Positions 15,901 through 39,900 of a stretch of 64,000 nucleotides of DNA are shown here, piece by piece. The stretch is from the NCBI GenBank assembly GCA_964545575.1, contig CAZJFL010000001.1:153896-217895 (forward strand). The letters run 5' to 3'. Below the pieces are notes generated by a model. It made no database searches, was not told the DNA's origin, and saw only the letters and a program-made list of their open reading frames with translations. Position numbers and translations under genes: made by a program. Every line of letters begins with the position of its first letter. Position 1 is the stretch's first letter. This DNA is from an uncultured Planctomycetales bacterium. Its GTDB lineage: Bacteria > Omnitrophota > Gorgyraeia > Gygaellales > Profunditerraquicolaceae.

Positions 15901-18900
15901 CATAGCCGTCTCCCATTTTATTTTCCATTCTTTATGATTACTGGACCAGGCTTTTTGTATATCATAACGCATTTTATTATCCCTGAGATATTCCAAAACA
16001 AGGTTATTGCGGAATCCCTCGTTCTTTTTAAATTCTTCTGCTAACTGCTGGATAAATCTTTCCTTTGTCCACTTAATGTGTATGGCCTTATACCCCCTGG
16101 CTTCCAAAAGCGCGTACCAATCTGGGTAACCATAATGCTTATGATATACGAAGGCGCCCATAAGCCCAGAATAACTATCATAAATCGCATCATAATCCGT
16201 GGTTCCCAGCCTTTGTATGGTCTTATCCAATTCTGCGCAAAAATATGGCCAGGTCCACTTCGTCATTTGCGTCCTTGCGTCAGTACGTTCAATACCCGCC
16301 TCCGCTACTGCAGCATCAAAGTCCTTAAATATTTCCAGCCTTAGCAAATGCCTGTACCAATTTTCCAATCTATGGTATTTGTTTTGAATAATATACGCTG
16401 AAACATGCCCCTCTTTTCTGTAAACCTCCCTCAATTGCTTACAAAACGCCTCTTTTTCTTCCTGAATCACGCCATTAAAACCTTTCTTTATAGAATCTAT
16501 TCTTTTTCTCCGGGCAGCATCGAAACGCATCTCTGATTCTAAAAGCCGCTTTAACATATCCTCTACAAAATAGATGAATCTCCACTTATTAGCTCTGGGC
16601 TTACGGGAAGCGTCCGGGCTAATCTGGCTTATTCTACCCATATATGATTCTATACTGCTGATTTGCCTTTCTATAAGCTTGGCTTCCGGGTCGGGGCTGG
16701 TGATGCAGAGTAATACATCTTTGCGCTCAAAAATCCTCAGCCATTTACACACCACTTCTATAGAATATCCGCATGATAAAGCCGCGGCAGTTTGACGGAC
16801 GGTCAAACTGGCCTTGCCCATTCTTAAAAGTTTGGCATTAATCCTAAAGGCCTCAGCTACTTTATCCGGCTGGACGAGTCTGATAAACTCATCGCTTGAC
16901 AAAAAATCTATTTTCTGTAACGCCTTTAACTGGATATTATCTAAGTAACTGCATTTAACAAAATTACTCCATTTCAAGTCACGGAACTCTCTGGTATTAG
17001 CCGGGTTAATAAAACCGGCAAGGCTGTTTATAATCTTGTTGATCATTACGGGAGAAAGGCGCTGCCTGACAAAGGCGCTCCGGAGAATCTCTATATTTTT
17101 AGCCCGGCATTGTAATCTTTGGCGCCTATGAGGCTCTTTTCGATTAACGGAGGAAACTGCCGGCACCGGCGGGAAGGTAAATAAGACATTCGGGGAATAA
17201 GCGAAAGAAAACTTTGCCAAAAACTTTTCCGGATAAAGCAGGTAGGATAAAATTTTGTCGCGGATAAACTCAAGCGGCGGGGCTTTGTTCCAAATGCTCC
17301 AGCGCATAATCTCGTCGCGATAATTATAAGCGGTTAAATAGACAAGCATAGCCAAACCAAGGGGGCCGGCACCGGCACAAAAAACAGCGCCTGCCGATTC
17401 AGTTCTTCTTTTTCTGCGGGAGCTTCTATACCTCCAGTTAAAATGTTGCATAACCAGGCCCTTGACCTCCCTCTTTACCTTGCGGATAATCCGCAGTATC
17501 TCGACTCTGTCAATATGATGACGTTTTACCAATTTATCCATGATTACGTCTTCTTCGAAGCCGAGCAGAAAGCCCCTTAGCCAATCAAGGAAAATTTTCC
17601 GTTCCTGAACCGTAAAACCATTAGTTTTAAGTTCTCTCCTGAAGGTATCGAATATTCTGGCTAGCGCCCTGTTATAACCATAATCCCTGCCGGGCATTGT
17701 TTCTTCCAAGGTATCTTTACCGTCTTCGTCGAACCCCTCCACGCACATATCTAAAGATACAGGGTTATTCCGGAAGGCTATACCGCGACAGTAGAACGCA
17801 TCCTGAATAGCTTTTCTAATCGCCCCCTTGAGGTATTCCTCAAAACCGCCTTCTCCGGGCTTGTATTCGTCTGATGCCTTATCAATACCGGACATTAATC
17901 CCAAGTTTCCAATACCGATTAATTCCTCTTCCCTTAAACCGCGCGGATGAATGATCTCTTCAAACACCTGAATGACCAGCGGCAGATAATGACAGATAAG
18001 CAACTCTCTAAACTCTTTACCGTTACCTTTAAGCAACTCAGTAATTGCTGCGCTTAACTGTTCGTCACTCAAGCGAGGAACGGTTTTCAGTTCATGACGA
18101 TATACTTCTGCTATATTACACTCGCCCCTCCTGCGAAGTCCCACTTTCATAACAGGTTTTTTTGCGCGCTTTCGCCTAGCAGCAGAAACAGACTCAAGCC
18201 CCAATTCCCTTAAATTATCCGCCAGGTATTCTGCAGTAACTTCTCTTCCATTGCGCAACTCTTCAAAAACCAGAAGGAAAAAATGCAGCAAGCCTATTCC
18301 TTTCTGGCTTAAGTTTCGCCCACCCCCTTGCCTGATCAATAACCCTAGCTTGCTTAATTTCTCTAAATGCAGGTGGAGTGGCTTAAGGTCACCTGTTTTC
18401 CCCCGGCCTTTAAGGGGGTGGCCGTACTGTTTCAACAACTCTATGATTTCTGAATTACTCCTTCCGTTGGCAACAGCTAAAAATATAATCAGCCTTCTTG
18501 TTGATAATGTGTGTAGCACAGGAAGCTTATAGATTACGCCGCTCTCAAAGATAGCCGTAAATTCATCATCCGAAAGAAAGCTGGCCCTCTGGACAGATGT
18601 TACTCTTGCGCTTTTAAGCGCGCCGGCAATCTCTTCTTCGCGCATTGAATCAATGGCTTCCATAACTTTATTACCTCGAGCAGAAAGCGCATAATCTCTA
18701 CCCTCTTTTACCACCAGGCCCCTTTTGATAAATACCTCCAAGCTCCTGCGTATCCGCCTGCGCTCTAGAGGAGTAGTATCGACTAAAAGCGCATATTTAG
18801 CCCAAAGCTTTCTGAATCCGGCAATCAGCGGCCTCTGGTCTGCCAATGCTTTAAACAGCGCATCAAGATCAGCCGGGGAAGAGGCGCTTTTTAGTATTTT

Positions 18901-21900
18901 TTCAGAGACAAAATCCTTGATCTCCTGAGAAGCGTAACAATAGGTATCCTCTGGATTAGAGAGCAGAAAACCGTCACGCACCATCTTCTGTAGGGTGTAT
19001 CGCACAATTGCCCGCTTCATTCCTGTAGACCTGTAAATCTCAAATATATTGCGCTTGCCTTTGGCAATGGCAAGCAAAACGATAATTACCGCCAGCCTCG
19101 CGATAGTCTTCTTTTCCCGTAAAACACCCTGCTCAGCAGGAAAAAGACGCCCCAAGACTACCGCCTCTATTGTATTTAAACCGAGCCCCTTTACCGCATG
19201 CTCAAAAGTAAATTCTTCAAATTTCGGAGTATATCCTAAGCTTATCAACAAATCATTTGGCTCCTGCTTAGTATCGGCAAGGTAGCCAAGGACTTTTTCT
19301 TTTATCTGCGGGCAAAGCGTATAAACAAATCCTATTCTCGCTGCCAATCTCTCCCCTACAAGGTTCCTTAAGACCTGTTCTACTCTAATCTTATAATTAA
19401 ATAATACGCCGTATGCCCGCCAAGGACGCGTATCATATGTCATATCCAGATAATTCCATAATTCGGATGCGCTGAAATAAGCTGATGGCCCGTTGAGCGC
19501 ATATCCCTCTAATACTGCTATCAGCGGCAAGAGCAAAAACGCGTTGTGCAATAAGCCCTTCATCTTATTATCCCAGGGAAATTCTAACAGCTTCTGAAAT
19601 TGTGTTTTAAATGCCGCGTCTCTTTCGGAAATAGAAACAGGCAGTCCGAAAGATACCCTGACGTCCCTCAGGCGCCTGCCTAAAGCGCGTAATTTCTCGG
19701 GGGCAAAAGGCCTTTGCGTAGCTTCTCTTATCGTTTCATCTATAAGAGACGTCAATCTTGCCGGAAATGCCTCTTTTGTAAGCCCGGCTTTACGCAAGGC
19801 CTGAATTTTATGGATAAGCTGCGCAAACAGAGCGGATAAAATTGCATCTTCAAGCCGGCCGATAAGGGAGCGGACCTGGTAAAAAATACCTTTGCTAAAA
19901 TAACGGTTAATCTCCTCTACGGTAATGATGGAAAGGAAATCCCATAGTTGGTATAAATGCTGCGCTTCTTTACTAGAAGAAGGCCGCATTAAAAGCTTTA
20001 CCCGGGCAATAGCATCTAAGAGCATTTCCCTACTTAGCAGCCCACGTACTTTTCTGAGCGGCGTAGGATAAAAGCGCGTTATTGCCCGAGCGGTATCAGT
20101 CTCTGCAGCCTCGATCTTTATGGTTTTTCCGTTTTCAATCCAGACTCTTAGCGTAGCGCCGTAATGGCGAATGGAAACGTATATCTGGCGCTCAATCGCA
20201 ATCCTGCCCTCTCTGTTTAATTTTAGTGTGGGCCCTTGCAAAATAATAATCCGCCCGGCAAACTTCCCCCGGTGCAAGGAGAGCATTACCTTTCTCTTAT
20301 TGCTCGGGAAAGAACCGATTATCTCTTTAGTCGCGGCATCGCGCATAAGGTTTAAATCTTCTCTTTTTTCGTTATCCGCCGCCAGCCTCACCCAGAATAA
20401 TATCCCTTTCTCAAAATAAGCTTCAATATCCTGTCCCGCAAAACGCTTAAAGTTATTGAAATTCTGGTCGGCAAATTCAAAACGCCCCAGCCGCGTCAAT
20501 CCCGGCAGCCGGGTGCGCAAAATGAGCTGCTTATGCAGCCTATTAAGCTCCTCCCAGCGGGTAGCTGAAACGCCCCAGCTGGATTTGTAAAGAGATTTGC
20601 CTGCGGGAGTGAGAATCTCCGTAAAACGCCTTTGCTTAAGATAACGCGGCCTTTGCGTTTGCGACGCTGTTTCAGCTACCGAAGCTGCTGCGCAACCCAA
20701 TCCCATACCAAATAGCTTATACCACTGCTGCATAAAACCGGAAAAGAACCAGCATAAAGCCGCAAAAACGCCAAGCGCAGTAATCAGAAAGATAATTTTT
20801 TTGCCGGTAGAAAGCCGCGGCCAGAAAACCTCCAGCCCGCCTAAACCGCAGGCAAGGACGCTATCGTCATTGTATTCGCCGTCGGCGTTAAATGGCCGGA
20901 CGCTGCGGTCAACATCAAGCTGCTTATCTTCTGATGTCGCGTCATCCGGAACCGGGCGCCTTGCTGCCGTAGGCTGCGGCTGAGTTTTTTCCCTGACGCT
21001 TTCCGGATGCGGGTGCTGCTTGCCGTTTCTTAATCCTGCCAATATAAAGGCTAAATGTCTTAAGTCTTCCTTTATAGGCATAAATGTTTCATATCTTAAA
21101 CTACTCTCCTCGGCATCGGCAAGTATAGAGCAAATCTCTTTTATCACTACTGTTAATTCTTCTAACACTTCTTTCGCTAATCGGCGCCTTAAATTAGGGG
21201 CTAAAGCCTCCAGAATATTTTCTGTCCGGCTGAATAAATCTAATGCCCTGGGAAAATCCTGCCGCACTATGGCTTCGTGCGCTTCGGAAATTATCCCGCG
21301 GATTTGTTGCGTCGGAGTAAGCGCCTTTGCTTTCGACGCCTTCTGCTGTGGCGTCTTCTGCTGCGCTGCTTGTCCTCGCTGGCTTTGCTGCCTGGCTGCT
21401 TCTTGCCGGGCTGCTTCTTGCCTGGCTGCTTCTTGCCGGGCTAATTTTAGCTTGGCTGCTTCTTGAGTAGCTGCTTCTCTGGTAGCATATCTGGCTAATT
21501 GTTCCCCTGTCCTGCGGAATGCCGCCGCTGCCTGTCTTTTAACTACCATCCTAAATTTCATTTCAGCTATCTTGGCCTGCCTTTGAGTTTCCCGTTTTTG
21601 CCTTGCCTGCTCTCGCTTCTCTAATTCAAGCCTTTTCTGTTCTATTTTCTCTTGCGCTATGGCTCTTCTTGCAGCTTCTCTTTTTTGTCGTTCCTCACTG
21701 ATAATCTCTTCTGTGTCACGGATTAACTGCCCAAGGTCGATCTTAAGCTGGCGCAACTCTTCTAAAACAGCAGCCTTAATTTTCGCCAATCTCTTTTCTT
21801 CGGCTACCGGCAACTCCAGGCGTCTAAGCATAACCTGATATCTTCTTAACCGCTGCAGCGGAAAATATTGCACTGCTTCTTCCAGGTCTAATCTTGCCTG

Positions 21901-24900
21901 CCGTAACTTACGAACTACAATGTGAACAAATACCTCATCTTTCATCTCCTGTCTTACGCGTAATCTCTTGGCTTGCCGCTCTGCGCCAAGCGCAATCAGC
22001 TTATTACGCAATTGTGCCACTAAGGCGTCTGCCCTAGCTAAAACCCGCGGCGACTCCTCTTTGTCTAACAAGCGTCTCAACCGCCCAAGATAATAATCGC
22101 AACGGGCGATTTGTAAATGTGGCGATATTGCTTCCATGCCTTCTAGGCGCCCGGGCAATTCTCGAATTAAAGTTTCCAAAGTCTGGCGAGGGCGAGAGGC
22201 GGCCCTGATCACTAAGCCCAAGGCAGTCAAATCTTCCCGCGCAGGAGCACTCTTATTATTTTGTAAAAATCCGAGTAATCTTAAACCTGCTTCAGTCGCC
22301 TCCGAAAGATGTTTTCCTTTTGCCAAAATCCCGGACTTCCTTAGTCCCATAAAATCATTGCGCACCGCTTGCGCCGAAGGCAATCCCAATTCTTCCTTTA
22401 TCTCTTGCGCGCTTAAACCGGCTAAAAAGTAAACGTATACCTGCATTCTTTTCTGTCCTTTTAACTTCTTCACCAGCGCTCTGGCTTGCTCCAGAGTAAT
22501 CACTTTTTTCCGGTATTTTGCGCCCCATTTAGTTACTCTTTTTCCCTTAATCAATTTTAATCTTCCGGCAGCAGCGGTATCAAACTGCCCTGCTTCTATT
22601 AAGCTGACTAATTCTTGGCCTTTGGCAGTTAACTGCCTTGCTGCGTCAATTAAGCGTAATTCCTGAAGTTTAGCCAGCATATTCTGGAGGCTTCCGTAAC
22701 TTATCTTTAGGCTCTGGGATAATTCCCTTCTCTCCCTGAGGCCAAAATTAATCCCCAAAAGCACTTTCATCCAGCTGGGTAAAACTTTAAGTTGTTTTCT
22801 TAATGCTTCGGGTAAAGCCATATATTTTTTCCATAGCCCCTCCAGTTGCGCCGGGACCGGCCGGATATCTTGCAGCCGGGGATCAGGGTTTTTAAATTCA
22901 AGCTCCAAGGCATACGCAGTTACCCTACCGCTCAATACTCCCGCTACCAACGCCTCTCCTTTCCCGCTCAGATGAAAAGGCGAAGGGCCTTGCTGAATAT
23001 AACCCCAGCCCGGTTCATTGCGCCTCTGGCGGTAAATAAATGCCTCGACATCATTCGGCTTCATCCCGGTCAGGCGGCTGATGCTAAAGGTAGTATTTTT
23101 TAAGCGATAAGGAAGCCTTCCGGAAACAAAAAGCGCCAAGAGAATAGTAAAGTGCTTTATTTTGACCGCATTTTTAGCGCTCAATTTCGCAAATACCTGT
23201 TGATAGCGCGCCAATTCACCACTTGTCAATATTTTTTCAAGCAGCAGGCCGCGTTTTACATTTTTCCAGTTAAATTCTTTAAAGTGCGGCAGGCCGTTCA
23301 GCTTAGCGCCCACGAGATCCTGCGGGTACGGCGTGGTACGCATGACCATAGCTGCCGCCAGAGTCAATAAGTGGTGTTCTCCGAGTGGCTGAACTAAAAA
23401 TTGCATTATTCCGCCGTGGGCGATAAATTCATAGGCGCTGCGCGCTAACTCTTGGCCTTGCGGATTATAGCAGATATAATAAACCGATAAAATTACTCCT
23501 ATAACTAGCAGCCCCAAATCAAATAATTGCACGCTGCCTCTTGCCTGTCCGGGGGTATCTTTATCCGGCGCAGGAGCGGATGTTTCTTTCTGAAATAAAA
23601 GCAGATATTTCCTAATAGTCCTTGGGGCGATATCGACGTTCGACTTTCCCGCCATTCTTATTGACCATTTTTCTCTAAATAAACCGGCTATCATAGACGG
23701 TACTAATTGGGCGGCGCTACAGCCCTGCTCACGGCATATCTCTTGAATTATATCCCTGGCCTGTAAATAGCCGTATCCCGTGCCAGGAACCAACAGCGAA
23801 AGAGGATAAACTTTACCCTTATACATTATTTCCTTTATTCCTTTTAAGAGCTTAATTACCGTGGTGTAATTAAAACCTATGGCCTCTGCGATATCGCGCA
23901 TATAAAGCGGGCAAAGCGAAACCATATTGCCATTTTCCAAATACTCCTTTTGCTTTTCAATGATTGTGTTTATCGCCAACAGTATAGATGCGCCGGGCAA
24001 TGGCTGCACAGGTAATCCATTCTGCATTTTCTCTAAAGCGCCTATTATGCCGCTATACGGAGCGCCCATCTTAAGATTTATAAAACCTAAGCGCCTGATT
24101 TGTCCTTCCTCGCTGATAAAATCTACAGAAGCTCTTTGCTTATATTTATCCCATAAGGCAAATAGTTTATTTCCTACCATCACCGCCTCTTCCTTTACAG
24201 CTGCCCGCATGCGCCAGAGATTGATCCTTCCGGTAAGTTTATGAGTAATGATTTTAGCGACCGCCTCTTCTATCTTTTTATCCAACGCTTTTGCAAAATC
24301 ACAGAAAGAACCATCAAGGTTCCAATTGTCAACCAGGGCGCCTATTTCATTAAGAACGGCTTTTAAAATATCTTCTGCCAGTTTATTGATTTCTTCATAA
24401 GCATAGAATATCTTCAAGGCGCTTACGGACCATTCAAAAGTATCAGCCATATCTTTGGCTAACCTATATTCATTCGATTCTGTAATGCGGCCCTGGTGGG
24501 CTTTGAAGTTATCGGATTTTTTTACCTCCTCAGGCGTGGGATGGTCAAACCCCTCCACATAGGTAAAGGCATTGGCAAACTTAGCCCGGAAATTATGCTC
24601 CAGCCAATCTAAATAAACCTCGGTCTTCTTCTCCTTTGCGCAAATAGCAAATTCTAATCTTGTAGCTAACTGGTGGTCGCCAAAAAGCTCTTCCCCTTTT
24701 TCATGTAGCGCAACATATCCTATAAACTCATCAGGAAACAAATCTCCGTCTACCAATAGAAAATAGCGTCCGTCAATAAAAATAGCCAGGCCCCCTAATT
24801 CTTTCCAGAAGAGCTCGAATGAAGGCTCGTCTTGATAATCCTTCTTTTTAATTACGCTATACTCAAAATCTAAACCGTGTCTCTGATAACGCCTCAGCCC

Positions 24901-27900
24901 TCCCGTCCTTCGTGCGGCCCGGCGGCAAATTTTAGGAACTACCTCTGCCAGATATTTATAAATACCTTCCAATTCCAGGCGTAGCTGCAGAATTCTTATT
25001 TCTAGCCTTTGCACCAACATCTGCCTTAGGCTCAAATCTTGACGCGTCTGCAGCACTAGCCCCAGCCCCAACCTCGTAGAATAATGCACCGGAAGAGCTG
25101 GCTCATAAGAAATATTGCGCTTAGTCGGCTTGATATCTGGCTTGATATAGCGATCCCCGAAGGCTGGAATTGGCAGAACGGTGGCTTCTTCTTTCTGCTT
25201 TTGCCAAAAGAGACCCCCTGCTTCAAGCAAATTCTTTAATTCCGCGTAGATATATTCTAATGCTGATTGGACTTCTTTTGCCTCCCAGTCAAACTCTCTA
25301 CCGGGCATGATACGCGCTGCAGCCGGTATCCCCAATATCTGCTTAATTTTCAAAAGTATATTGTGGGCTTTCCGATTAGTAAAACCATGTTCATGTAAAT
25401 CTGCCTCAAAAGCAATTATTCCTTGAAGCAGAGAGCTGAATAACTCTCTGGCTAAACGCTTTAGTTTCTCTTCTTCGCTTAACTGGACAGCGCCTTCTTT
25501 TTTATCTTCCGGTAGAGCAGGACGGTTAAGGCAAAAGCGTTTTCGCCCCACAGGCAAATTCTTTAATTCGGCAATAAGATAGCTTAAGATTCTTACTATC
25601 TGCGGCGAATCCCATTGAATAACCAACCTGGTAAAATGAACTCCAGAATTCAAGCCTAAGCCTTGATGGATTTCTTTACAGATACGCTTTATCTCAGCGG
25701 AGTTAAAACCGAGCCGTTGTAAAGCAAGCTCAAGGCCGATACGTCCGCTTTCGGGTAAGGGCTTTAATAACCTTATGGCGATACGCTTTAAGCCTGCTTC
25801 CTCTGTATCACTTACATCCTTTATGCTGCATCCGGCAGGGACATTCTGGAGGGTAAATAACCAACGGGGTAGGATTTGTTCGATAAGCGTAGCGATGGTT
25901 TCGGCGATAGGTGGGCCCTGGGCGCTGCGCAGGCAGGCCAAGAGATAATCGCGCGCTAACATTACCCCTTCTAATAGCCGCGGCAGGATCGGGCCAAAGG
26001 CGCCAAGGATACTGGTGATAGTGGTGATGATAGTGGTGATGGTTGCCGCGCTTAATCCTAAACCAAACGGCCAGAAAACGTCCCCTTTTGCCTGCTCAGG
26101 GGTATTTTTATCCGGTAAAGGTTGCTCTCTACTTTGGGCAGAGTACCCATCCGCTCCCGCTAATCGTCCCAACATAGTCATTTTCAGGCCGGTAGCAATT
26201 TTACCCAATAAACCGGGGACATAAAGATAAGCTTCGATAATACTGCTAAAGCCGGCTTTTTGCGCTAAGTGGTTTAAGAAATATAAATTCTTCAGTAAGA
26301 GGGTGATCTGAAGCGGGATAAATACGCCGTGCTTTTTTAGGCAAACCACTACTTCGGATAAACTCTGTCCGGAAGCCAAGCTCTCCAGCCTATTTTGTTG
26401 AGCAGCATTATCCATTAACTGCTTTACTTCCTGCGCAATCGCTTGCCGCTGGCTGCTTAACGGTTGATTTTCGGCTAAGCCAAAAAGGTAATCCAGGAGC
26501 TGATTGATTTTAGCGCCGGCGCCGGATAATTTTGCCAGGCCGCGCATTAATTCTCTTTCCTGCGCGCCTAATTCGAGGTAGAAGTTGCGGTCCAAAATGG
26601 CTACCCGGCCGTCAGGGGTAATGCGGAAGTTGCCTTCATGGGTATCGGAATGCACCAAGCCCAACCCATCGCCCAGCTGTTCTAAGTAATTCCGGATAAT
26701 CAAACTGACTATCTGCCGGTAATCTTCCTGCGCCACCACTCCTTGGGTTAAATCCGTGCTCTCCCCGATCTTAAGCTGCGTAAGATTGACCCCCTCGATA
26801 TATTCTTCGCGCTTGAGGTAACGGTAGTTAGGCTCAAAACTCTGCGGTACATAAATCGAGAGTCGGAAACCCTTTGGCCGCCAGCCATTATATCTTTCTC
26901 TAAAGCGGCGGTCATTTTCTAAGAAGCGGGTATCATTGATATCGCTGATTAACCAGCGCTCCAAATCCGGCAGCACGCTATCCCGCAACATAACATAGAT
27001 TTTATTTTCCGGCTCCTGCTCGATGAGTAAATCTAAAGTCTTTTTAAGCAAGGCCGCCATTTCTCTGATCCGCGCTTCGGCATTGGGGTTTAAAACTTTG
27101 AGGATATACTTTCTGCCGCTCTTTTCTTCTACCAGATAAACACTCACCAATGACCCGCCTCCGATACGCTCTACTAACCGGTCTTCGGGGCCTAAAAGCC
27201 CGGGCGCTTCCCTCTTAATGGTCTCATGGGCGGAAAGTTTAGACTGGCCGTGGATATCGTCATAAACCCGGGAAAATTCTTCCTGAACCGCTGGCGGTAT
27301 ATCTATATACTGACCTAAAACCTGCAGGCAACGCACGCCGAGGGCGCCAAAATGCTCGGCAACCCGGATAATTGCCGTCGGCCCGGAGAGTTTCTGCGTT
27401 TGTGGCGGATGGCGGCATTCCTCGGGAAGCTCGACAAAAATAGCCTGTTCTGCCGAAAGTAATTTTTCTACCTGACCAAGAGCAGAAAAAGCATAGCGGC
27501 TGGCTTTAGCCACCAGGCAGTCACCCTGAGTTTCATATTCTCTGCCATCCTTACCGGCACAGGGGCAGTGTAATCTAGCATCCCAAACCCCTTCATAGCG
27601 CACCTCTCCGTGTATATCACGCGTATTCTCTAAGAAATCCCGTACAAGCTCGGCAAAATCGTTCACCCTATTTTCCGGACGCCCAAAGATAGCCTTGACT
27701 AAAATCGGCGCTAAAAGAAAATAAAGGTCTTCTTTAGAGGAAACGCTGATAAAGGCCTTGACTATCCGCTCAACTGCCGCTTCATGCGCCTCGGATACTT
27801 CTACCTGATGCTCGATAAACTGAGCGGCCAGCTCTTCTACTTGCCCGGGATGATTAAGGATTCCGTTGGCGGGATCGGTTAAGGCCTTACGCAGCAGCAT

Positions 27901-30900
27901 CTGGCGCTCTAAAACATCGCTGTCATAGAGCCGCTCGATGAGCTCGCTGACGGATAAAAGATTGATCAGCTGGGCCTGGGTTTTATTTGCCTTTTTGACA
28001 TGTCTGTCCTCGTCATCGTCAGACATATTCCTCAATAAGTCATCAGCGGGAAATTTTTCTTCTGTCCAATGTAGGATATCTTCTGGCTTATCAAAATAAT
28101 CTAAGCCCGTCGGCTCCAGCGACTCTCTTAATATTCCGCTGTCTACCGTCCTGAGCCACCATTCCCACAAGCCAAAACGTAACAGTTCGTATTCGTCATT
28201 ACTGCTGCTTAAAGCAGCCAGCAGGAATTCCTGATTGTGCTGGAAACAGAATTTAATAAAGGCGTCGATAAATACGCCCCAGCTGGCTTTCTCTTCTGCG
28301 GCCTGGCTGCGGTATAAAGCCAGGAATTTCTCCCTTATTCTCTCTAGCTCCACCGGCGTCTGGGCAATTTTTTCTATGAATACTTCCATGCTGTTTCCTA
28401 ATCTGGCGCCTTGGCCTTCTTCCTCCTCCTGGCCAAAAACAATCTCCCAAGCAGCATTAAAATCAGCTCCTTTCAATAAAGCGCCCCGCGCATAATCTGC
28501 TACCTTTCTTTTGATATCCGGGTCAGAGAACAAGCAGGTTAAAAGCAGGAAGCGCTTAAGATTACCTTTTACCTGCGGATACATCCCGGAGATGACTTCC
28601 TCTGTCTCATCAATAAGGCTTCTTTGTTCAAGGGCATTAAGTAAATCCGGCGCAGTAATTAAAGCAAAGATATTTATGACGCATAATCTATTTATCCGCT
28701 CCAGGAATAACCAGGACTCTTCGGCTTTACCCGCTTTTAATAACTTAGCCAGGATGCGCACCGCGTCTTTCGTAAGCAAGTATTCAGCTTTGCGATAGGC
28801 TTCCTTGCGGTTACGCCACGGCGCCGTCTTTAAAACATCCTTTTTCTTAAAAACAGGTATCCGTTCCCGGATAAGCTCTAACAGAGAAATATAGCTATGG
28901 GTAAACTCTTTCCTACCGGACAGATTCCAGGAAGTAATGGAAAAATAGAGAATATCGTTAGCGCAATCTATGAGGGTTGCCGGAGGCAAATCATCCTGGG
29001 CCATTACAGCGATGAGTTCACGCAGAAAACTCTCCTCTATGACTATTTGCTCTTTTTCCTGGCCTTTCTTTACTTCCGCCATTTCATTTTTGTCTAACAC
29101 GCGCTGCATTATGTTGTCACAGAGCTTACGGTAACCCTTATCACGGATATCCTGCGGCTGGCCCTTGAATAATGCGTTAAGGTCTTGTATGCGCTGCTGG
29201 CCGGGATAACGGCTAAAATAATTTTTTAACCCTTCCAGAGCGAATTGATGCCAACGCCAGAGCTTGGTCAGCTCTGGATCATCTATCTCTTCTATCTGTT
29301 GAGCGGTTACGCTAGAACGAAACGAGAAATATACCATGTGTTCTATCTGGAATAGATTTTTGTGCCTTTTAATCGCCGGGCTATCCAGATAACTCGGGAT
29401 ACCTGACCCGCCAGAGAGAATCAGCAACAAAGCCAAGTGGGCCAAAGAATCATTGTCCGCAGCTTCTAAAATGCCGCTTTCTAAAATAATCCGGCTCCAA
29501 TCTCGTTTGTCGCTTAAAAAATAAGAAAGGTAGAGAGTCGTCTGCCATCTGTTTAAACCCTCCTGCGCTAGATAACCGCAGATATCTTCAAAAGAACTGG
29601 CGTTTGAAAAAAGGGCTAAGCTAAAGAGCAGGCGGCGTAAGTCTTCTATATCAGTTTCTTCGCCCTGAAAGGCCAAGCCTAAATCAGAAAGCCGCTCTGT
29701 CAGCCGTTCAGAAATACGGAAATATTTTGCACTGTCAAAATTACCGCTTTCAGCATCAATAAATAGTTCCGGCTCGCGGACGCAATAAGTGATAAAATCT
29801 ACAATTTTAAACCCCCATCCGTATTCCGGGCTGCTAAAAAACTGAATCCCTAACTTGCGGAAATATTCCGGATCTAATAAATTAAGGAAACCTTCCAGCT
29901 CGTTATCTCCTAAGAGATACATAAAGAACTCCTGGGCCAGGAATTTACCGTTTTGGCTGCGGAAGTCCAGTATGTTGCATAATCTCTCTTTCTCCTCGCT
30001 GTCATCACGGCCGATAATTTCTTCGCGAAAGAGCTCAACATCCATGGCAAAATAGAGAACTACCACCATAAATGCCCGGCGCTCCTGTTCCGATAAATGC
30101 GGTAGCTTCTTGGCGATTGCCTGCAATAACTTATCCACTATCAGTCTTGCCGCAGGAAAACCATTTTTATCTATTTGATAGAGCGGAAACTCAGTGCCGA
30201 TTTTATATTTTGGATAAGGGCTTAAGCCCAAGTCAGCCAGCTTGATGCCGCCCTTTGCGGATTCTTTTTTAGTCACTAAATGATCGCAAAGGTCAACCGC
30301 CACATTGAAGTAACTGGCGGCTAACGCCCTCTGCAGAATAACCAAGTCAGTGGTATTTCCTGCTAACATTCCCTGCACTAAATCTTCTATATCTCCTTCC
30401 TGTCCCTCTTGGATTTTTTTCAGGCGTTGCTTTAAAGAGTACTCTTCTTCCTTGACTTCTGTCAGTTCCTGCGCCACCTGCTTTTGCCACTGGGGGTTAA
30501 CCGGCGTCTGTAACCGCTGCATACCTTTGATATCCAAAATAAAAGCCAAAGAAAGAATATTTAACCTTCGGTCTTCCAGCCCGCCGTGTACCGCGTCCCA
30601 ATCCTGGCCCTGCTGAGCGTATTCCTTAAGATTCTGAAAGAAAGTTGCTCCGGCCAAAGGATAATATCCGGCCTCACCAAGCATGTTTACTACCGGCGCT
30701 AAGTCAGCCTCGTATTCTTTTAAACGATCTGCGCCCAGGTAAGTCGTCAACCCGGAAAGGCTTCCCTTTGCCTTCCTTAGATTATCCAGCGAGTGGCCGC
30801 TGTAGATATGTTGCAGTTCGTGGGCAAGGAAGACCGCGGCTTCGTCTTCGGTCTTTAAGTAGGTGAGTAATTTCAGGCTGGCGATAATACTGCCGTCCGG

Positions 30901-33900
30901 CAGGCCCAAGCCGATTAAATGCTGGGTCTCTTGCAGGACATAAAGATGAGGGTTAATGCCGGGCGCGGGTTTTCTTACCGCAAGCAGTTTGGCTAAAATA
31001 TCATTCAGATAACGCGGGATAAGATGGTCCTCGCTAAAAAATCCGTAACGCGCCTCTAATTCTGCCCGATATCTTTGGGTGGCCATAGTTAAAAGGCGGC
31101 TCTCTTCTGGCATAGGAACCACTGCCCTTGCTCTTAAAAAAGTCTGCTTTTTTACCGGTTTATCAGCTGCTCTTCTAAAACCAAGGAGTTCTTGCCGAAA
31201 TTCCTCATGCTCAATTCTCTCTAATTCTCTCCGAACTTCCTCTTTAACATACTTACGCAGCAACCGTCTGACTGGTCTATCCAGCGAGTTTCCGACTGTT
31301 CTCACATCCATAGCGTCGGTATCCTGGCTTAAGATTTCTTGGACTAAACGGCATCCCGCCTGCAACCTAAGAAATTCTATATCATAATTCCTCTTTCCTT
31401 CTAGGGGAGCAAAGAGATTATAAAAAGTTAGGCTTTGCGTTGCCTTAAAAATTAATGATAATAGCACAGACCCTAAGTCTAATTTCTTTTCCGGTGATGG
31501 ATATTTAAAGGCCTTTGTCATTATGTAAACACTTAATTCGTGACAGAACTTGGCAGGGAAAGTGCCGCCGCAACAGGCTATCTCTATAACCTTATCCCAG
31601 CTCTTTCCAAGAATCCCTTTTAATGGCGCGGAGTCGCCTTGGGTAAGAAAGATATTTACGGCTTCTTCCGCTCCCGGATACCTATTAATAATCACCTCTA
31701 AAAACTGTCTCTCAAATCCATAAGTCCTAAAAACCCAACTAGCAAATTTTCTGGGATCTTTATCATAAATTCTCTGCTGAAGCCGCTGTAAGCGGGGCAG
31801 GTAGGCAATTATTTCTTCCTCTATACCAGGCTCCCCAAGGCAAATATCGCCCATTATCCGTATGCTTAACTTTTCAGTCATTGCCTCATCTAATATAGAA
31901 AATAAAAATGACACACTACCTTTTATCCTTGCCATGCCTACGGAGAAATAGTTATGGACTAGCTCATGAATCAAGATTTTTAATATGACTAAAAGGCTTT
32001 TAAGTTCGTTGCGTATAAAGATTATACTGGTGCCGTTTTTGCCGTCGGAAATTGGCTTATTTATGCCCCCGGCATCAGGAAGCCTTAGTAATTCCCAAAG
32101 CCATGATGACTTCGGAATAAAGAATATCTTTTCCGAATCAAAATCAATATCGGGATATTTTTTCAGGGCCCTCTGCATAATATCTAAAGCGCGTTTCTGA
32201 GAAGAAGAGAGTTCTTTTTCTACCCCGCCCGGCATTTTTCTTAAGGCCCTGATGAATTCCCCTATTGTTGGCTCTCTCATATGGCTCTTTAATTCTGCGA
32301 TATTTGCTTCTGCCTGCCTTAATTTTTTTCTGCAAGTTTCCAAGTCGTCTTCCTCTATGCTAATTAAAGTCTCCCTTGCGATGCGTGTGCGGGGTGATTT
32401 TTTCAATTTCCTTAAGCGCTTTTTGGATTCTTCGATATCGTATATTTTGTCCTTAATATAATTATCCATCATACCTTCGATAGTGCGTATTCTGGATTTG
32501 GGCTGAACTGGCTCAAGAGCGGATGCGTCCTGTATGCTACATCCTAGAGGGGCATTCTGGAAGGTAAATAACCAACGGGGCAGGATTTTTTCGATTAAAT
32601 CGGCTAAGCGCTCCTTCCACGGCGGGCCGTGGGCGCTGCGCAGGCAGGCCAAGAGATAATCGCGCGCTAACATTACCCCTTCTAATAGCCGCGGCAGGAT
32701 CGGGCCAAAGGCGCCAAGGATACTGGTGATAGTGGTGATGATAGTGGTGATGGTTGCCGCGCTTAATCCTAAACCAAACGGCCAGAAAAGATTACCGGCC
32801 AAAGGCTCGCCTTTCTTCCCTTCGCTTTGGGGCTCTTCCTGTACGAGAGCCTGTTTCAGTTCTCTTTTATACATATCTCGATAACTGCTCAGGCGGCAAA
32901 ACAGCGCTTTATCTGCTTCATCGCCGGTAATGTTATATTTTTTGGCCATACTATGCGTAGCCCTAGACAGGCCTTTCACCAATAATGTTAGAGTAGAGGC
33001 CACCTTATCTTGATCGCGCAGAATTTGATACTTAGCGTAGAACATCTGTTGCACCATTGCCGCATTGAGCGCAGTAACCGCGGCCCTTTCAAAAAGCTCC
33101 GCTACTGTTGCATTTTCATCCGAACACTGCTGGAGAGAACGCGCCTGATGATAAAAGGCATTACTCAGCCACGCATAGGCACGGCTTAGCTCTCGATAGA
33201 GGGTGGTAATTATCTCATTATCTGCCTCCGTGGGTTCCTTGCGGCAGAGGGATAATAAGGCGGTATTTAAACGCACCAGGAGTTCACAGAAAGCAACCGC
33301 TACCGCGTAATCTTGCGGATCAGCATTATTCCAGGCCTGCTTCTCTATTGCTTCTATAATACGTAATAACTGCGTAACAACCGACTCTACAACAGGCAAA
33401 TACTGTTGCGGGTCAATTTCGTAACACTCGGGGAATAAATCAATCATCTGTTCGGCGATGCGCAGTATCTCGGGATATTCTGCGGGGGTAATTTCAGAAG
33501 CCGCCCTCCTCGCCCTGCAGACGATTGCCCAGTGCAAATCACCCAATGCCAGGCTAAGAGTATTCTGCCTGTCCATGTTGAAATAGCTAAGAGGTACGGC
33601 AGATAAGCGCAGACCCCATTCTGCCGACTTTGCGTAAAGCCTGCTTGCTTCAATATACTGGGCGCGGCTTACCGCAAAAGGCCTTTCTTCCCGGCAATGC
33701 GCAGCAAAGTGGCAATCGTTCGCCAACCGGCCTATCGCGCGGGATAAATAAGGAAGAATTCTCAGATGTTCATTAACCCGCACTATAGCCTCGCCTAACT
33801 CTATATCTAAGAGGCAGGCCTCATAGGCCAAATCAAAAGCATCCCGGCATTCCTTAAGCACTTTACGTTCCTCTGGGCTAAAGCCTCGTTTATCCCAATA

Positions 33901-36900
33901 CTTTCCTGTCTCTTCTTTTAATAACTTCTTTAAGAAGTCGGCTTTCTGACACATATATTGCGCAGCCAGATGCAGATAATGCTTTTGTTTGATTAAATGC
34001 ACGATTACCCTCTGGTCATATTCTCCCAGGTATCCTGACTTAATTTTAAATATCCGGCCGTGAAACTCTGAAATGTTCCTGGCAACTTCAAAGATTTCCT
34101 GATAGACCTGCGCTAATTCATATCCATCGTAGCAATATACGGCCCTCCCTAGTAAATATGCCAATGCATTCTTCTGTTCGGCAATGCCTCTGCTGCACAT
34201 CCTAACTTTATACCGGGATACCACGGAGCTGCCTAAGACCCGCCATTGAAAATAGTAATAGTTTGCCTCCCAGTTATCCCTTGCCCACATCGGTAAATCC
34301 CACAAGGTGCTCTCCAGAAGATCGTTGTCGAGTAAGCTATCTAAAAGCTCCAAAGCCGCGCGGCAGATAATCCTCTCTGACAGATCAAGTCCTGATGCTA
34401 AAAGTTTTGGATAAACTTTCCCGGGGCCAAAACAAAAGTAGATAGCGGCGCTATCCAAAAAGCGCAGAATCTCTGCATCCCTGAGCAATCCCTGAGGGGA
34501 ACAGTTTCTTTTCTCAGCCAGCAGATGCGCTAAACGGGCTACTTCTGGCTTGCCGGTTACTTCTGCAATAGGAACGCGTGACTGAAGGAGAGAATTTCTA
34601 TCTGACTTCTGTGTCATGCCGGCGCGTAGTTTCTCCATGGCCTTGCCGACCATTACCGCGGCTGCGCCGAAGAAATCGTAGGCAGTGACGGAAGGTAAGT
34701 TTCTGGGCGTCCCTGGTTCGGATTCCACATATTCGGCGACAAAGGCGTCTTTTTGGTAGCGCCCGCCTATCTCTGCCGGCCATTTCACCATTAACAAGAA
34801 CAAGCTGTCTTTAGTCGGCGCGCAATTGCGCACGGTAAGATAATTCCCCTGCCCTTTGAAGACCAACAGGTCTGCCTCCTGCCAGGCCCGGAAGAATTCA
34901 GGGGATATCCTTTGTAAATCCGTGCCCAGGCCGATGGTACCGGTAGAAACGCAGGGCAGTTTGTCTATACCTAACATTTCTTTAATCGCCGGCTCTTGCA
35001 ATAATTGCTCGATTTCCGTTTTTGTGGCATCATTGTAAGCAGGCAACTCATTAGCCGCCAGAGTAACGCTATGGCCTTGGGCGATTAAATAGTTAATAAA
35101 GACAAAATCCATGACATCCTCTCCGGCATTATCAAAGACGTAAATAATATTTTTCGGCCGGCCCTCTAATTTCTTCCTTAATTGGTCTATATCAAACCTC
35201 TCCCAGAAAATATCCCTCCGGAAGAAATCGCTAATTATATCTTCTAAATAATAATCGCCACCCTTCATGATGCGTTGACACAGCCGAGGATCAGCCATAT
35301 CTATGGCATTGGCAATAGCGGCAATGCGTAACACTGCTTCTAATTTATCCTGTGCGGCCATGGCTAAATCGACAGCCTTAGCCAGCACCGCTAATGCCTT
35401 GATACGCGACCAGCGCTTGATTCCCGCGTCCGGATCAATGTTGCCGAGTACCGAGCGGATAATCTCCAGAGTTACTTCCAAAGCCTCGTAATTAGTCATC
35501 TCTTTAGTTTCCGGCAAACTCAAGAATGCATCTACGGCGGCCTTGGCCTTGATTTTTAAATCTTCGTCTGTGGTTGTCGCCCGGTCAATCAGGGCGAATT
35601 CACTCTCTCTCCTGCGCACAAGCAGATTGGTATCAGGGTCATTTCCGGCGAGATAGTCTCTGATGAACATATCGCCGATGCGGTAGGGCGCGCTGGCTGC
35701 AGCAATCTCCGGCGAAACCGGCGCCAGTCTGCTGCGGTCGAGCTTAGCCAATATTTGCTTTACCAATGCCTCGGCAGAAACCTCTATGGGAACCTGACAG
35801 TGCGGCCAGCGCCTGCCATTATTGTCGTCCTGCTGCGGCCCTTTGGCTTGATTCAGGGCAAGCACAGGGACGACGAATTGGGCGGTGCGGGGACGGATAA
35901 ATTGCAAATACCAGGCCTCGTGCCGCTGGGCGAGGTGGGTGAGGGTAAATTTACTTTCTACAAATTTTCTTCTCTTACGGCCCATCTCCGCTCTTTTGAT
36001 AGGGTCGTCTAAGAGCTCCTCTAACCTGGCCGCAAATCCGTAGATATCGCCTTTCTTCACTAGATATCCGGTTTCACCATGCCGCATCGCCTCAGAAATT
36101 CCTCCCACATTATAGGCGATCACCGGCTTGCCCATTGCCTGGGCTTCTAAAAGAACCCTCGGCAAACCTTCGCTTTCGCTAGGCAAAACTATTACATCGC
36201 TGGCAGCATAATAATCACGTAATTGCTCTTGCGAAAGATCGCCGGTAAAAATAATATCCTGCGGATCTAACCCGGCTTTATTAGCCGCAGTGATTATTTT
36301 TGCCGTGAATTCTGGACCGGACTCAGGGCCGGCAAAGATGAACTTAGCTCTTTGACCGCTATTCCTAAGAATACCGGCAATGCGAATAAGGTCTAAATGC
36401 CCTTTTGCTTCATAAATTCTGGCAGCCAACAGCACTACGGGATGTTTAAAATCCAATACTTTGGCATTCTCCATTTTCCAGTACTCCGTATCAATACCAT
36501 CTAAAAGATTCCTGAACTTACGCTGAACTGACTTAGGAACACCCACGCCCGATACGCCTCCTACGCCATCTACCATATTTGCTAAAGGCTTATTCAAAAA
36601 CTTATTATCGCCATGATATTGGAACAAAATAGGAATATTTTCCTTCCGCGCTTCAGAAGCCAGCGATATCATATTCTTTATGAATAATGCATGAACGGTA
36701 ACTAAATCTACTCCGTATGTCTTAAAAGCTTCCTTAACCTTTTCCGTAATTTTATCCGTATCTAAAGGAGAATCATAAAACTTCCTTATTAGCGGTACCC
36801 CGAGTAGAAAAGTTGCAACTTTAAGATTACTTAGCCAGCGGATGATTACATTTTTTATCCTCAATAGCGTAAGCAATAACTTAATTATATTATAAAGCCG

Positions 36901-39900
36901 TGATTCTATCTTAGCGCTGAGGTCTCTCTTGGCTCTTGGGTGTAAAATGATAGGCATTTTTATCAACTTGCTGCCGTTTTCCATATTTTCAATACTGGTA
37001 GCCGCGACAAGCTGATCTTCTGTCAGGTATATTTGAATAATAGTAAGATTATGATTACGTTCTAATAAAACGCGATTCAAACACTGTAAATAATATTGCA
37101 ATCCTCCGGTTGTATCGTAGGCGTGCGTAATCCTAAGGATAGTCCGGTTGTCAAGGCATCCGGACTCAGTAACGTCCAACGCAGCGGTAGGTATAGTAGC
37201 GGGGCCTCTAATAGCGGGAGCGGGTTCCGAGCTAATCGGAGAGGTGTCCCCTTCGGGGGCGGCGGCGGAATTCTGCGATGGGGAATATGGCGCAAACAGA
37301 TGCGGCAGGAAAAAACTTAAAAGAGCTGCGGTATAGCAGGGAACGGATAACAAAAATGATCCGCCAAGAAAGAGCAAGGCGACGGCAAAACTGATCATCA
37401 ACTTATCTATAGAGAAGGCAAATTGCAGTTTCTTGCGGAAGTTTTGACCGGGCGCGCCGGGAATATGCAAGGGGTGCCAGAGAAGGAATTGGTAAGCGGC
37501 TAAGAAAGCAAACACAAACCAGAAGGGCGGGGCAAGGCTAAATGGCAGACCAAAAGCCAAACTCAATAGCCATGCCCCACCAGCCACAAAGAGAGGAGAA
37601 ATTAATGATTCAAAGATTGCCGGCGCCCACACCCAGCCCACTTTCTCACCATATTTTCCGGCTAACCGCCTATATATCGGCTTCATCCACGGCCACTGCC
37701 CGCCTAAGTGCGTACCGTAATCAACTGCCGGCAGATTCAGGGGAACGGACGCCAAAAACGGCTGTAGAGGAACAGCTGCCTCTTGGTCCTCTGGCCTGCG
37801 GGGGAAAAATTTATCCAGCTCTTCTTGCGCCACCCGCTTGAACTCGGCGTCAAACTTAAGGCGCACTACGTATTCAACCACAAATTCCTGCAGTTGGGAA
37901 TCTTTGCGGAACATCCCCATTAATACCCGCAGGCTATAACCTGCGGGTTCTTCCGGATAATCAAAATAAAAATGCAAAAACTCGGCAATTTCGCAGCGAT
38001 AATATTCAAGATCGTCTCTCTTAGCGCCGCCGGCATCTATAGCTTGGCGCAATGATAACCCGGTCTGCTCAATATAAAAACTCACTAATGCCTCTCTGAT
38101 GCCTGCGGGAACAAACTTCCGCAGAAAGTTGATCGGTTGGTATAACACATGCCCGCGCTTGTTCAAAAAGGCATTTGTTCTGTTATTATCATCGAGCCGG
38201 TAACACATATCACGTATTCCTGTAGCCTTCATATCTACCGGGGCAAGCGGATCACTAAAAAGAGAACCGAGGTCTAAAAGATATAGGTTACCCTGCTTAT
38301 CTATCCCATATTGCTTAAGAAAAGAATCACAACAGAACACTCCCCTGGCCATCATCTGATGTTCTAATTTTATTTTCTTCGCCAGAAGATCTTTGAGCGC
38401 TCTCTCAATTGTCGCCTCATCCTCACTGCGGCATATCTCTAACATAACCTCATTAAGGGGGGCGCGCTCTACCTGAATAATAGCTTTATGGCGGCTAAAC
38501 TTATCTCCTATCGTCAGGGGCACAGCAGGCATGAGGGAAAATTCCGCTGCCAGCCCTCCTAAGCGCTGCGCTGCCAAACTATAGCCGCTTTCTGTCTGCG
38601 GAAGGAACTGCCATCTGTTGTGAGGAATTTTGACTACAAACCCCATTCCGCGGCGGATGACTTTTACTTCAAAGCCCGCGGGATCGACTTCTGCGGAGAC
38701 GAATGCAGTTGAGGCAAGAACTTGCGAAAGTTGCTCTGCGGTTATCCCGCCGACTCGCGTTTCTACCTGTTTCCCCCGGTGGCTTACATTCTTTCTTAAA
38801 ATATAGGTGCTGTGCAGAACGCCGGGTGAATGATCTTTTGGATACATGACGGGTGAAGAATCCAGGACCTCCAAACCACCTCTGAGATCGCCAAATATAG
38901 ATGGTTCTTGTTCATGCTTTTTAGATTCAAAAGAAATATATGTAATTGCGCGAAGCCTGGCTAACTTGAAAAGGGTATCTAAGTGATTATTTATTATCCA
39001 CTGGCTAAATAATTCTTCACTTTCGCAAAATAAAGCGTGCTTTTTAGCTCTCTCGCCATAGGCATTATTCACGGCATATAGATATCTAGTCAGCGGCATC
39101 ATCATCCCGTTCATCATATCTGCAGAAACCACTAAATCCGCCTGTTCTAAACCTAAATCCTTCGCCTCTTTCATCCGAACTTCTCCGTTACCGGATTCCC
39201 TGCTTATATAGTGGCGGTAGAGGCCACTTAATGCTGATAAAAAGCTATCTATTTCTGCCGGCTGTCTTAATCTTCCTGCGGATAATAATTCATGCAATTT
39301 CTTATCAGCTTCTCTGACAATTTCAGCGTTAGCTCCGGAAACATCCTGCCTGACCAAAACCAGTCTTTCCTGCAGGTCCGGACGGTGGGATAACCGCTGA
39401 TAGGCAAAACTCAGCGCCTTGGCGTCTAAATCAACTAAAATCACCTTTTTAAAAGCTGAAGCCAGATCTTCCAGCGGTACATCCAGACAGATATTTGCCC
39501 CCAACACGATAACCGTGCCCTTATTCTCGGTATACTTGATCGCCTGACGGACTTTATTCTGCACACACTGGATGGTTTGGGTAAAAGGAGAGGTTCCGTT
39601 CTGCGATAATATTTTTATTGCCTTGCTAGTATACCATTCAAAAGCTTGCCGATAAGGTTGCGGTAATTCGCCTGTTCTATCATCGACGATCGGTTCTCTA
39701 TTATCAAATATAAATACCTGGCTGAAGTTTGCCGCGAATGTTTCAAAGTCTAATCCCGGTATTGCCAAGGCTTGATGCAGTTCGCCAAGGTCAGGTGGTC
39801 GATTTTTTATGATAAATTCGACCCTGCGCTCCCAAAATTCAGAGTGCTTCCTCGCATAGCGAAGAAGTCGGGAAAACTCCCCTAGCTGCGGTAAGCACCT

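Follow-up and report, generated by a model that had tools for sequence, protein, structure and literature searches.

Size-variable surface proteins of the streptococcal alpha C / Rib family contain identical in-frame tandem repeats, which undergo concerted evolution and among which recombination produces in-frame deletions and expansions. Giant bacterial genes (i.e., genes with tens of thousands of codons) have been discovered only recently, and the ways in which they are built, kept up and varied are not yet settled. Giant proteins described from the Omnitrophota include the "Archaeovorins", i.e., multi-enzyme membrane-anchored proteins of at least 30,000 amino acids (aa) (West-Roberts et al. 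2023, 10.1101/2023.11.21.568195), and the "multi-enzyme metabolic cluster" class of at least 10,000 aa (Nielsen & Lui 2026, 10.64898/2026.06.07.730766). Repeats within Omnitrophota giant genes generally carry accumulated synonymous changes (10.64898/2026.06.07.730766), and among very large modular genes, the assembly-line polyketide synthase (PKS) genes offer well-documented cases of conversion between their repeated segments (Nivina et al. 2021, PMC8256042). Here we describe an exact direct repeat of 160 nucleotides (nt) in a 64,000-nt stretch of DNA (hereafter, the window) from an uncultured bacterium deposited as a member of the Planctomycetales and placed among the Omnitrophota in GTDB (assembly GCA_964545575.1, contig CAZJFL010000001.1, positions 153,896 to 217,895 of the forward strand). 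The two repeat tracts lie within a single giant minus-strand reading frame and form parts of two copies (A and B) of a short helical module, which occurs in the same frame as a third, diverged copy (C). We consider it probable that the repeat is the product of recent gene conversion between two old copies of this novel module in a giant multi-enzyme gene, and regard the finding as a new case of an already known process, set in an unusual gene.

The window gene resembles the alpha C / Rib genes in carrying nucleotide-identical in-frame repeats between which recombination could give in-frame deletions or expansions; in those proteins the tandem repeat itself varies, whereas the two short repeats of the window gene enclose 6.5 kb of unique sequence that encodes enzymes. 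The PKS genes and the highly similar segments that they carry (GRINS; PMC8256042) represent another parallel, as both cases show dispersed high-identity segments within a very large modular coding region, an identity that exceeds protein conservation (credited in the PKS genes to non-reciprocal recombination) and potential sites of in-frame module loss or gain. On the other hand, the window gene encodes no PKS domains, the repeated unit is only ~270 nt long with 160 identical nt, the nucleotide skews are not intense, and a single pair of copies has been homogenised. GRINS are defined as duplicated segments of >500 bp with >80% DNA identity and with mean absolute GC and TA skews >0.15 in 150-nt windows (PMC8256042). 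Copies A and B share ~89% overall identity (29 mismatches in 258 nt), which lies above the identity threshold, but their homology spans only ~260-290 nt and their skews in 150-nt windows fall short of the required intensity (|GC| 0.04-0.17 and |TA| 0.05-0.17 in copy A; |GC| 0.16-0.20 and |TA| 0.01-0.09 in copy B; gene-wide mean absolute skews of 0.153 for GC and 0.123 for TA). We thus do not classify the pair as GRINS.

Judged from predicted domains, the architecture of the window protein resembles that of the giant Omnitrophota proteins of both preprints, with many distinct enzyme domains tiling one polypeptide (GT1, HAD, GNAT, kinases and a peptidase, with HEAT/TPR scaffolds), dozens of hydrophobic helices, and no tandem repeat dominating the sequence. 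The reading frame comprises at least 21,333 codons, as both ends of the gene lie beyond the window, and is thus longer than the 10,000-aa threshold of the "multi-enzyme metabolic cluster" class. Within the 21,333 aa encoded by the window, Pfam identified PGK, HEAT, TPR, GT1, ARMT1-like, M48-like and ABC1/UbiB-like kinase regions as well as winged-helix (wHTH) regions, two HAD hydrolases, DnaJ and GNAT acetyltransferases, and a crude hydropathy scan found approx. 52 hydrophobic-helix-like peaks along the protein. Chunk-versus-chunk BLAST comparisons revealed only six internal similarities, indicating that the giant protein is not a tandem-repeat scaffold. SecA_DEAD, C39 and S8 peptidase domains, which are common in Omnitrophota giant proteins (10.1101/2023.11.21.568195; 10.64898/2026.06.07.730766), were not found by Pfam in these 21,333 aa of a gene that extends beyond the window. 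Further differences from the described Omnitrophota giants are that the repeats reported for them have decayed in nucleotide identity, while the tract described here is exact, and that no sequence relatives of the window protein were found in the collections searched.

Repeat anatomy and mosaic identity

Base-by-base extension placed the exact repeat at 25919-26078 and 32630-32789, with a start-to-start spacing of 6711 nt, i.e., 3 × 2237 codons. A preliminary description had reported a perfect 158-nt repeat with copies 6,711 bp apart; the repeat is real and its spacing was right, although two bases had been missed. A third, diverged copy, which had been proposed at about 14.8 kb, is also present, so that the direct-repeat family has three members (14674-14919, 25822-26067 and 32533-32778), with the member at 14674-14919 showing 72-78% identity to the other two over 246 nt and approx. 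90% identity within the core. An exact match of 160 nt cannot arise by chance in 64 kb, and no other long direct or inverted repeat was found in the 64-kb window. All three copies are on the minus strand within the single stop-free frame, and the peptide FWPFGLGLSAATITTIITTITSILGAFGPILPRLLEGVMLARDYLLACLRSA is encoded twice on that strand, at residue 10405 and again at residue 12642 of this frame. That the spacing is a multiple of three, as had been pointed out, is correct but trivially so, since both copies encode the same peptide in one open reading frame (ORF). The features of the repeat and of the gene around it are as follows (window positions; all on the minus strand).

1-63999, minus strand: stop-free reading frame of a multi-domain giant gene, 21,333 codons, running off both window ends
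32512-32787, minus strand: module copy A, aa 10405-10496 (~92 aa), with a hydrophobic T/I-rich helix, a GAFGPILP turn and two amphipathic helices
32630-32789, minus strand: perfect tract (160 nt) in copy A, encoding the module's N-terminal portion (5' side)
25801-26076, minus strand: module copy B, aa 12642-12733
25919-26078, minus strand: perfect 160-nt tract in copy B
26016-26041 (also 32727-32752), minus strand: 12-nt tandem repeat (2.2 copies) in the core, encoding the TTII run
14659-14925, minus strand: diverged module copy C, aa 16359-16447, with nucleotide identity of ~90% in the core and 40-70% downstream
26079-32629, minus strand: unique interval between the perfect tracts, which together with one tract makes up the 6,711-nt (2,237-codon) unit
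30772-30918, minus strand: M48-peptidase-like stretch with an intact HELQH motif, aa ~11028-11076
26542-27165, minus strand: ABC1/UbiB-like atypical kinase region with kinase-like motifs, aa ~12279-12486

The sequences around the two tracts had been described as diverged throughout, which applies to one side of the module only. On the N-terminal side, the copies show zero similarity to each other, whereas on the C-terminal side homology between A and B extends approx. 100-130 nt past the tract, at roughly 60-93% identity, and then ends. Directly after the tract, copy B carries a private stretch of seven amino acids (IAETIAT; 25888-25908, aa 12698-12704), where A, C and the only homologue found outside the window (encoded on metagenome contig L001, see below) have a WK..LA.-type sequence. 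As the patch with ~93% identity comes after this replacement, the module is a fine-scale mosaic.

Comparison of synonymous changes between the core and the downstream part of the module showed a pronounced difference. In the core, A and B show no differences in 52 codons (~39 synonymous sites by the Nei-Gojobori method), while the same method yielded a proportion of synonymous differences (pS) of 0.41 for the next 34 codons, with synonymous and nonsynonymous distances (dS and dN) of 0.59 and 0.30, respectively. Among codons with conserved amino acids, synonymous changes were found at 0 of 52 core codons as compared to 7 of 23 downstream codons (P = 1.2e-4; Fisher's exact test), and third-position differences at 0 of 52 as compared to 13 of 34 codons. 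Moreover, when the 29 mismatches were placed at random 200,000 times, a mismatch-free run of 156 nt or more never occurred. The same core codons do vary in the other copies: copy C carries synonymous differences at 8 of 43 conserved core codons, and the L001 copy shows a pS of 0.44 in its shared part of the core. The identity of the two tracts is thus not explained by selection at the protein or nucleotide level, and these data uphold the earlier suggestion of gene conversion or very recent copying. Given zero differences, divergence of the 160-nt tract would be below ~2% at 95% confidence. In the downstream part, on the other hand, A, B and L001 are roughly equidistant from each other (dS 0.54-1.5, dN ~0.3), and C is more distant. 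As the downstream A-B distance, measured over 34 codons, is similar to the distance to L001, A and B are old paralogues with 5' parts that were recently made identical.

The helical module and its relatives

A profile search with all filters off (hmmsearch --max) found exactly three copies of the module in the window protein, with the consensus FWPFGLGLSAATITTIITTITSILGAFGPILPRLLEGVMLARDYLLACLRSA.GPPWK..LA..IE.ILP..LFT..N.P.GCS. The 600 aa on either side of A, B, C and the outside copy are mutually unrelated, indicating that the module is a discrete unit found in differing contexts rather than the remnant of a large segmental duplication; such a duplication was also rejected because the rest of the 6.7 kb is unrepeated. 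Copies A and B gave no Pfam match at E <= 1, C gave a chance-level match only, and no relative of the module was found among PDB structures (best E 0.12). AlphaFold2 modeling from a 4-sequence alignment predicted an all-helical structure with helices at residues 10-26, 30-51 and 57-78, at a low confidence (predicted local distance difference test [pLDDT] score of 55) that is too low for a fold search. The preliminary description had assigned the same transmembrane-like helix to both tracts; the shared peptide is indeed encoded twice and helix 1 is hydrophobic, but only borderline so (Kyte-Doolittle value of 1.71), the remainder of the shared peptide is an amphipathic helix, and helices 2 and 3 of this low-confidence model are amphipathic. 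Hydropathy and model together suggest that the module probably serves as a membrane-anchoring or membrane-surface hairpin.

A search of 5.8 billion protein clusters and 1.84 billion representative proteins identified a sole outside homologue of the module, i.e., protein P0001, which is encoded on the 1,351-bp JGI contig L001 (JGI 3300063051, Ga0598267_0261587). In this protein the module comes after the end of an HD-phosphohydrolase-type domain (HD_assoc in Pfam); it shows ~77% DNA identity to copies A and B and has a T/I run that is seven codons shorter. The L001 ORF ends 85 codons past the module and the next ORF is in a different frame, so the stop may represent either the gene end or a frameshift. 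The module profile detected only P0001 and a spurious repetitive protein (P0002) among the 1.84 billion representatives, and a 351-aa query around copy A matched only P0001 among the 5.8 billion clusters. The 2,501-aa interval from A to B, used as query, matched only P0003 (29% identity over the M48 region), the contig of which is an ordinary multi-gene locus and uninformative, and the N-terminal 1,000 aa, including the PGK domain, matched nothing at E <= 1e-10. The module alignment and an alignment of internal paralogues were also used to scan GTDB representative genomes and JGI metagenomes, and neither gave a relative; the module was likewise not found in the viral contigs, plasmids and phages scanned. 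Overall, the giant ORF is a near-orphan, as approx. 3,850 aa used as queries (including the PGK, M48-like and ABC1-like regions) gave only two weak matches among 5.8 billion clusters, a result to which the word-index pre-filter of the cluster search may have contributed in part. More unusual than the exact repeat are this giant near-orphan ORF and the occurrence of a discrete, essentially unannotated module in four contexts that are unrelated to each other.

Origin of the identical tracts

The mosaic pattern of A and B is a classic signature of ectopic gene conversion or of an equivalent recent copy-and-replace event, and we infer that conversion caused the identity of the two tracts. The window represents part of one minus-strand gene encoding a giant multi-enzyme, membrane-associated protein, in which the ~92-aa module is present three times, each time between unrelated sequences. 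A and B are old paralogues (downstream dS of ~0.6), and the 5' 160 nt of one copy would recently have been overwritten by the other through non-reciprocal homologous recombination (i.e., intragenic ectopic gene conversion), leaving an identical tract whose 5' end is also that of the homology. The tracts would incidentally form a 160-bp substrate for homologous recombination, which could delete or duplicate the 2,237-codon interval, with its M48-like and ABC1-like regions, in frame. As repeats in Omnitrophota giant genes are usually decayed, the exact tract is exceptional and indicates a recent event. The case would thus provide direct sequence evidence that homologous recombination is active inside a giant gene.

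Several points weigh against conversion. Detectable homology between the copies ends altogether at the 5' end of the tract; this is a slightly odd pattern for gene conversion and would also fit a recent partial copy-and-replace event. The contrast with the downstream part is based on just 34 codons, and the comparison of A and B covers one genome. The function proposed for the module is based on hydropathy and on a model with a pLDDT of 55. Finally, the identity could have its source in assembly or polishing, although we consider this unlikely.

Under this last explanation, the two cores would be similar without being identical, or the path through the repeat would have been resolved incorrectly. 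Short-read polishing can homogenise near-identical repeats. A 160-nt exact repeat is longer than common k-mers and Illumina reads and thus represents a genuine assembly hazard, as had been noted before; the alternative solution of the assembly graph would be the deletion form together with a 6.7-kb circle, and since the frame stays open under either resolution, the integrity of the ORF cannot discriminate between them. However, the distinct, diverged 3' halves and the unrelated flanks make it certain that there are two separate paralogues, and the boundary of identity is sharp and located at a codon-level mosaic. Moreover, homogenisation by polishing requires copies that were near-identical beforehand, so that the biological conclusion would barely be altered. 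Either way, the repeat provides a practical warning for the assembly and polishing of giant-gene loci.

It is tempting to regard the tracts as a programmed or selected system of cassette variation, in which identity is maintained for the sake of recombination events that insert or remove the M48-like/ABC1-like block and thereby produce population variants, but we consider this improbable. A stretch of 160 bp of identity far exceeds the minimal length for RecA-dependent recombination, so events are expected at some low frequency. A recombination product would remain in frame, and the module is joint-like in that it occurs in unrelated contexts, with copy C as a third member and the L001 copy in a further context of its own. 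The calculation that recombination would remove or add exactly 2,237 codons without breaking the frame, in an interval that holds the M48-like (HELQH) and ABC1-like regions, is correct and the mechanism is plausible; nothing, however, points beyond a by-product. No relatives were found in any of the collections searched, and hence no variant was observed; only one pair among the three copies is identical; the search for recombinase sites, inverted repeats and other site-specific features found none; and the base composition of the interval is ordinary, which also led us to reject the interval as a foreign insertion. The capacity for in-frame deletion is a property common to any two identical repeats and does not make them a mechanism, so that the "built-in cassette-variation mechanism" of the preliminary description is unsupported and reduces to a possible consequence of 160 bp of identity. 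If helix 1 spans the membrane, a protein without the interval could even have a different number of membrane crossings, with everything downstream in inverted topology, and such a change would do harm rather than good. Should the 2,237 codons be lost or gained in frame, a giant protein would have a simple way to vary its enzyme content; otherwise the tract is an ordinary conversion tract.

It is similarly doubtful that the module acts as a dedicated recombination joint, with recurrent conversion keeping its copies identical and thereby allowing in-frame excision, duplication or exchange of enzyme-domain blocks. The position of the module behind a different enzyme domain in the L001 organism fits such module-bounded shuffling. 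If true, the content of one giant protein would differ between strains, and giant genes would have a way to grow.

Some genomes contain mobile DNA that inserts into ORFs, such as the Rickettsia palindromic elements (RPE), and the module could conceivably be an in-frame element of this kind that spreads within and between giant genes, with the identical pair as its latest insertion. The discrete ~270-nt unit with sharp borders in four unrelated protein contexts, the unsaturated synonymous divergence between copies and the copy behind an HD-phosphohydrolase-type domain in another organism are consistent with such spread. We nevertheless consider it quite improbable, since neither terminal inverted repeats nor a palindromic structure are shared among the copies, folding is not stronger than in shuffled sequence (z=+0.39), only three copies occur in 64 kb and none were found in plasmid, phage or viral collections, and the identity between A and B covers part of the unit only, which a fresh insertion would not give. 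The lack of shared inverted repeats, the folding result and the copy number of three likewise led us to reject a miniature inverted-repeat transposable element or an RPE-like element.

It is very improbable that the 160 nt are a functional nucleic-acid element under nucleotide selection (i.e., an RNA structure, an internal promoter or start, or the template/variable repeat of a diversity-generating retroelement), for although identity reaches all synonymous sites, copy C and L001 vary freely at synonymous sites in the same codons. With regard to specific elements of this type, no Rfam match was found in the window and the 160 nt fold no better than shuffled sequence (z=+0.39), and no internal promoters or terminators were found in the cores, where counts were at or below shuffle expectation. 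A template/variable repeat pair was rejected as A equals B, mismatches to C show no adenine bias and no reverse transcriptase domain is encoded in the window; as the window is one ORF without such a domain, it also contains no separate reverse transcriptase gene.

Other features of the giant gene

In addition to the module, the giant protein contains a paralogous pair of ~170-aa domains with 41% aa identity (45637-46143 and 24439-24942; aa 5953-6121 and 13020-13187), which carries a conserved HE.GE motif; Pfam did not match this pair, and scans of genomes and metagenomes yielded no relatives. A second, more distant pair of internal paralogues shows 28% identity over 145 aa (59590-60000 and 7180-7596; aa 1334-1470 and 18802-18940). 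Neither region of this pair was matched by Pfam, with the nearest GNAT match located at aa 19004-19082, downstream of the second copy. The mechanical ORF listing also includes ORFs on the plus strand (e.g., 10796-11401), which are antisense to the giant frame and probably spurious. A 15-nt tandem repeat with approx. 6-7 copies (21359-21493; aa 14169-14214) encodes a charged, low-complexity linker of the (QEAAR)n type. At 34000-36999 (aa ~9180-9740), a GT1 glycosyltransferase is directly adjoined, in the same polypeptide, by an ARMT1-like (DUF89) damage-control phosphatase; this region also shows a weak match to "GT4 in conflict systems" (PF20706). Finally, near the N-terminal end of the protein segment encoded by the window, the hydrophobic motif P.FIL..A.A.SMG occurs twice (62121-62164 and 63336-63379; aa 612-627 and 207-222), with 82% nucleotide identity between the copies over 44 nt, and may represent another small shuffled helix motif.

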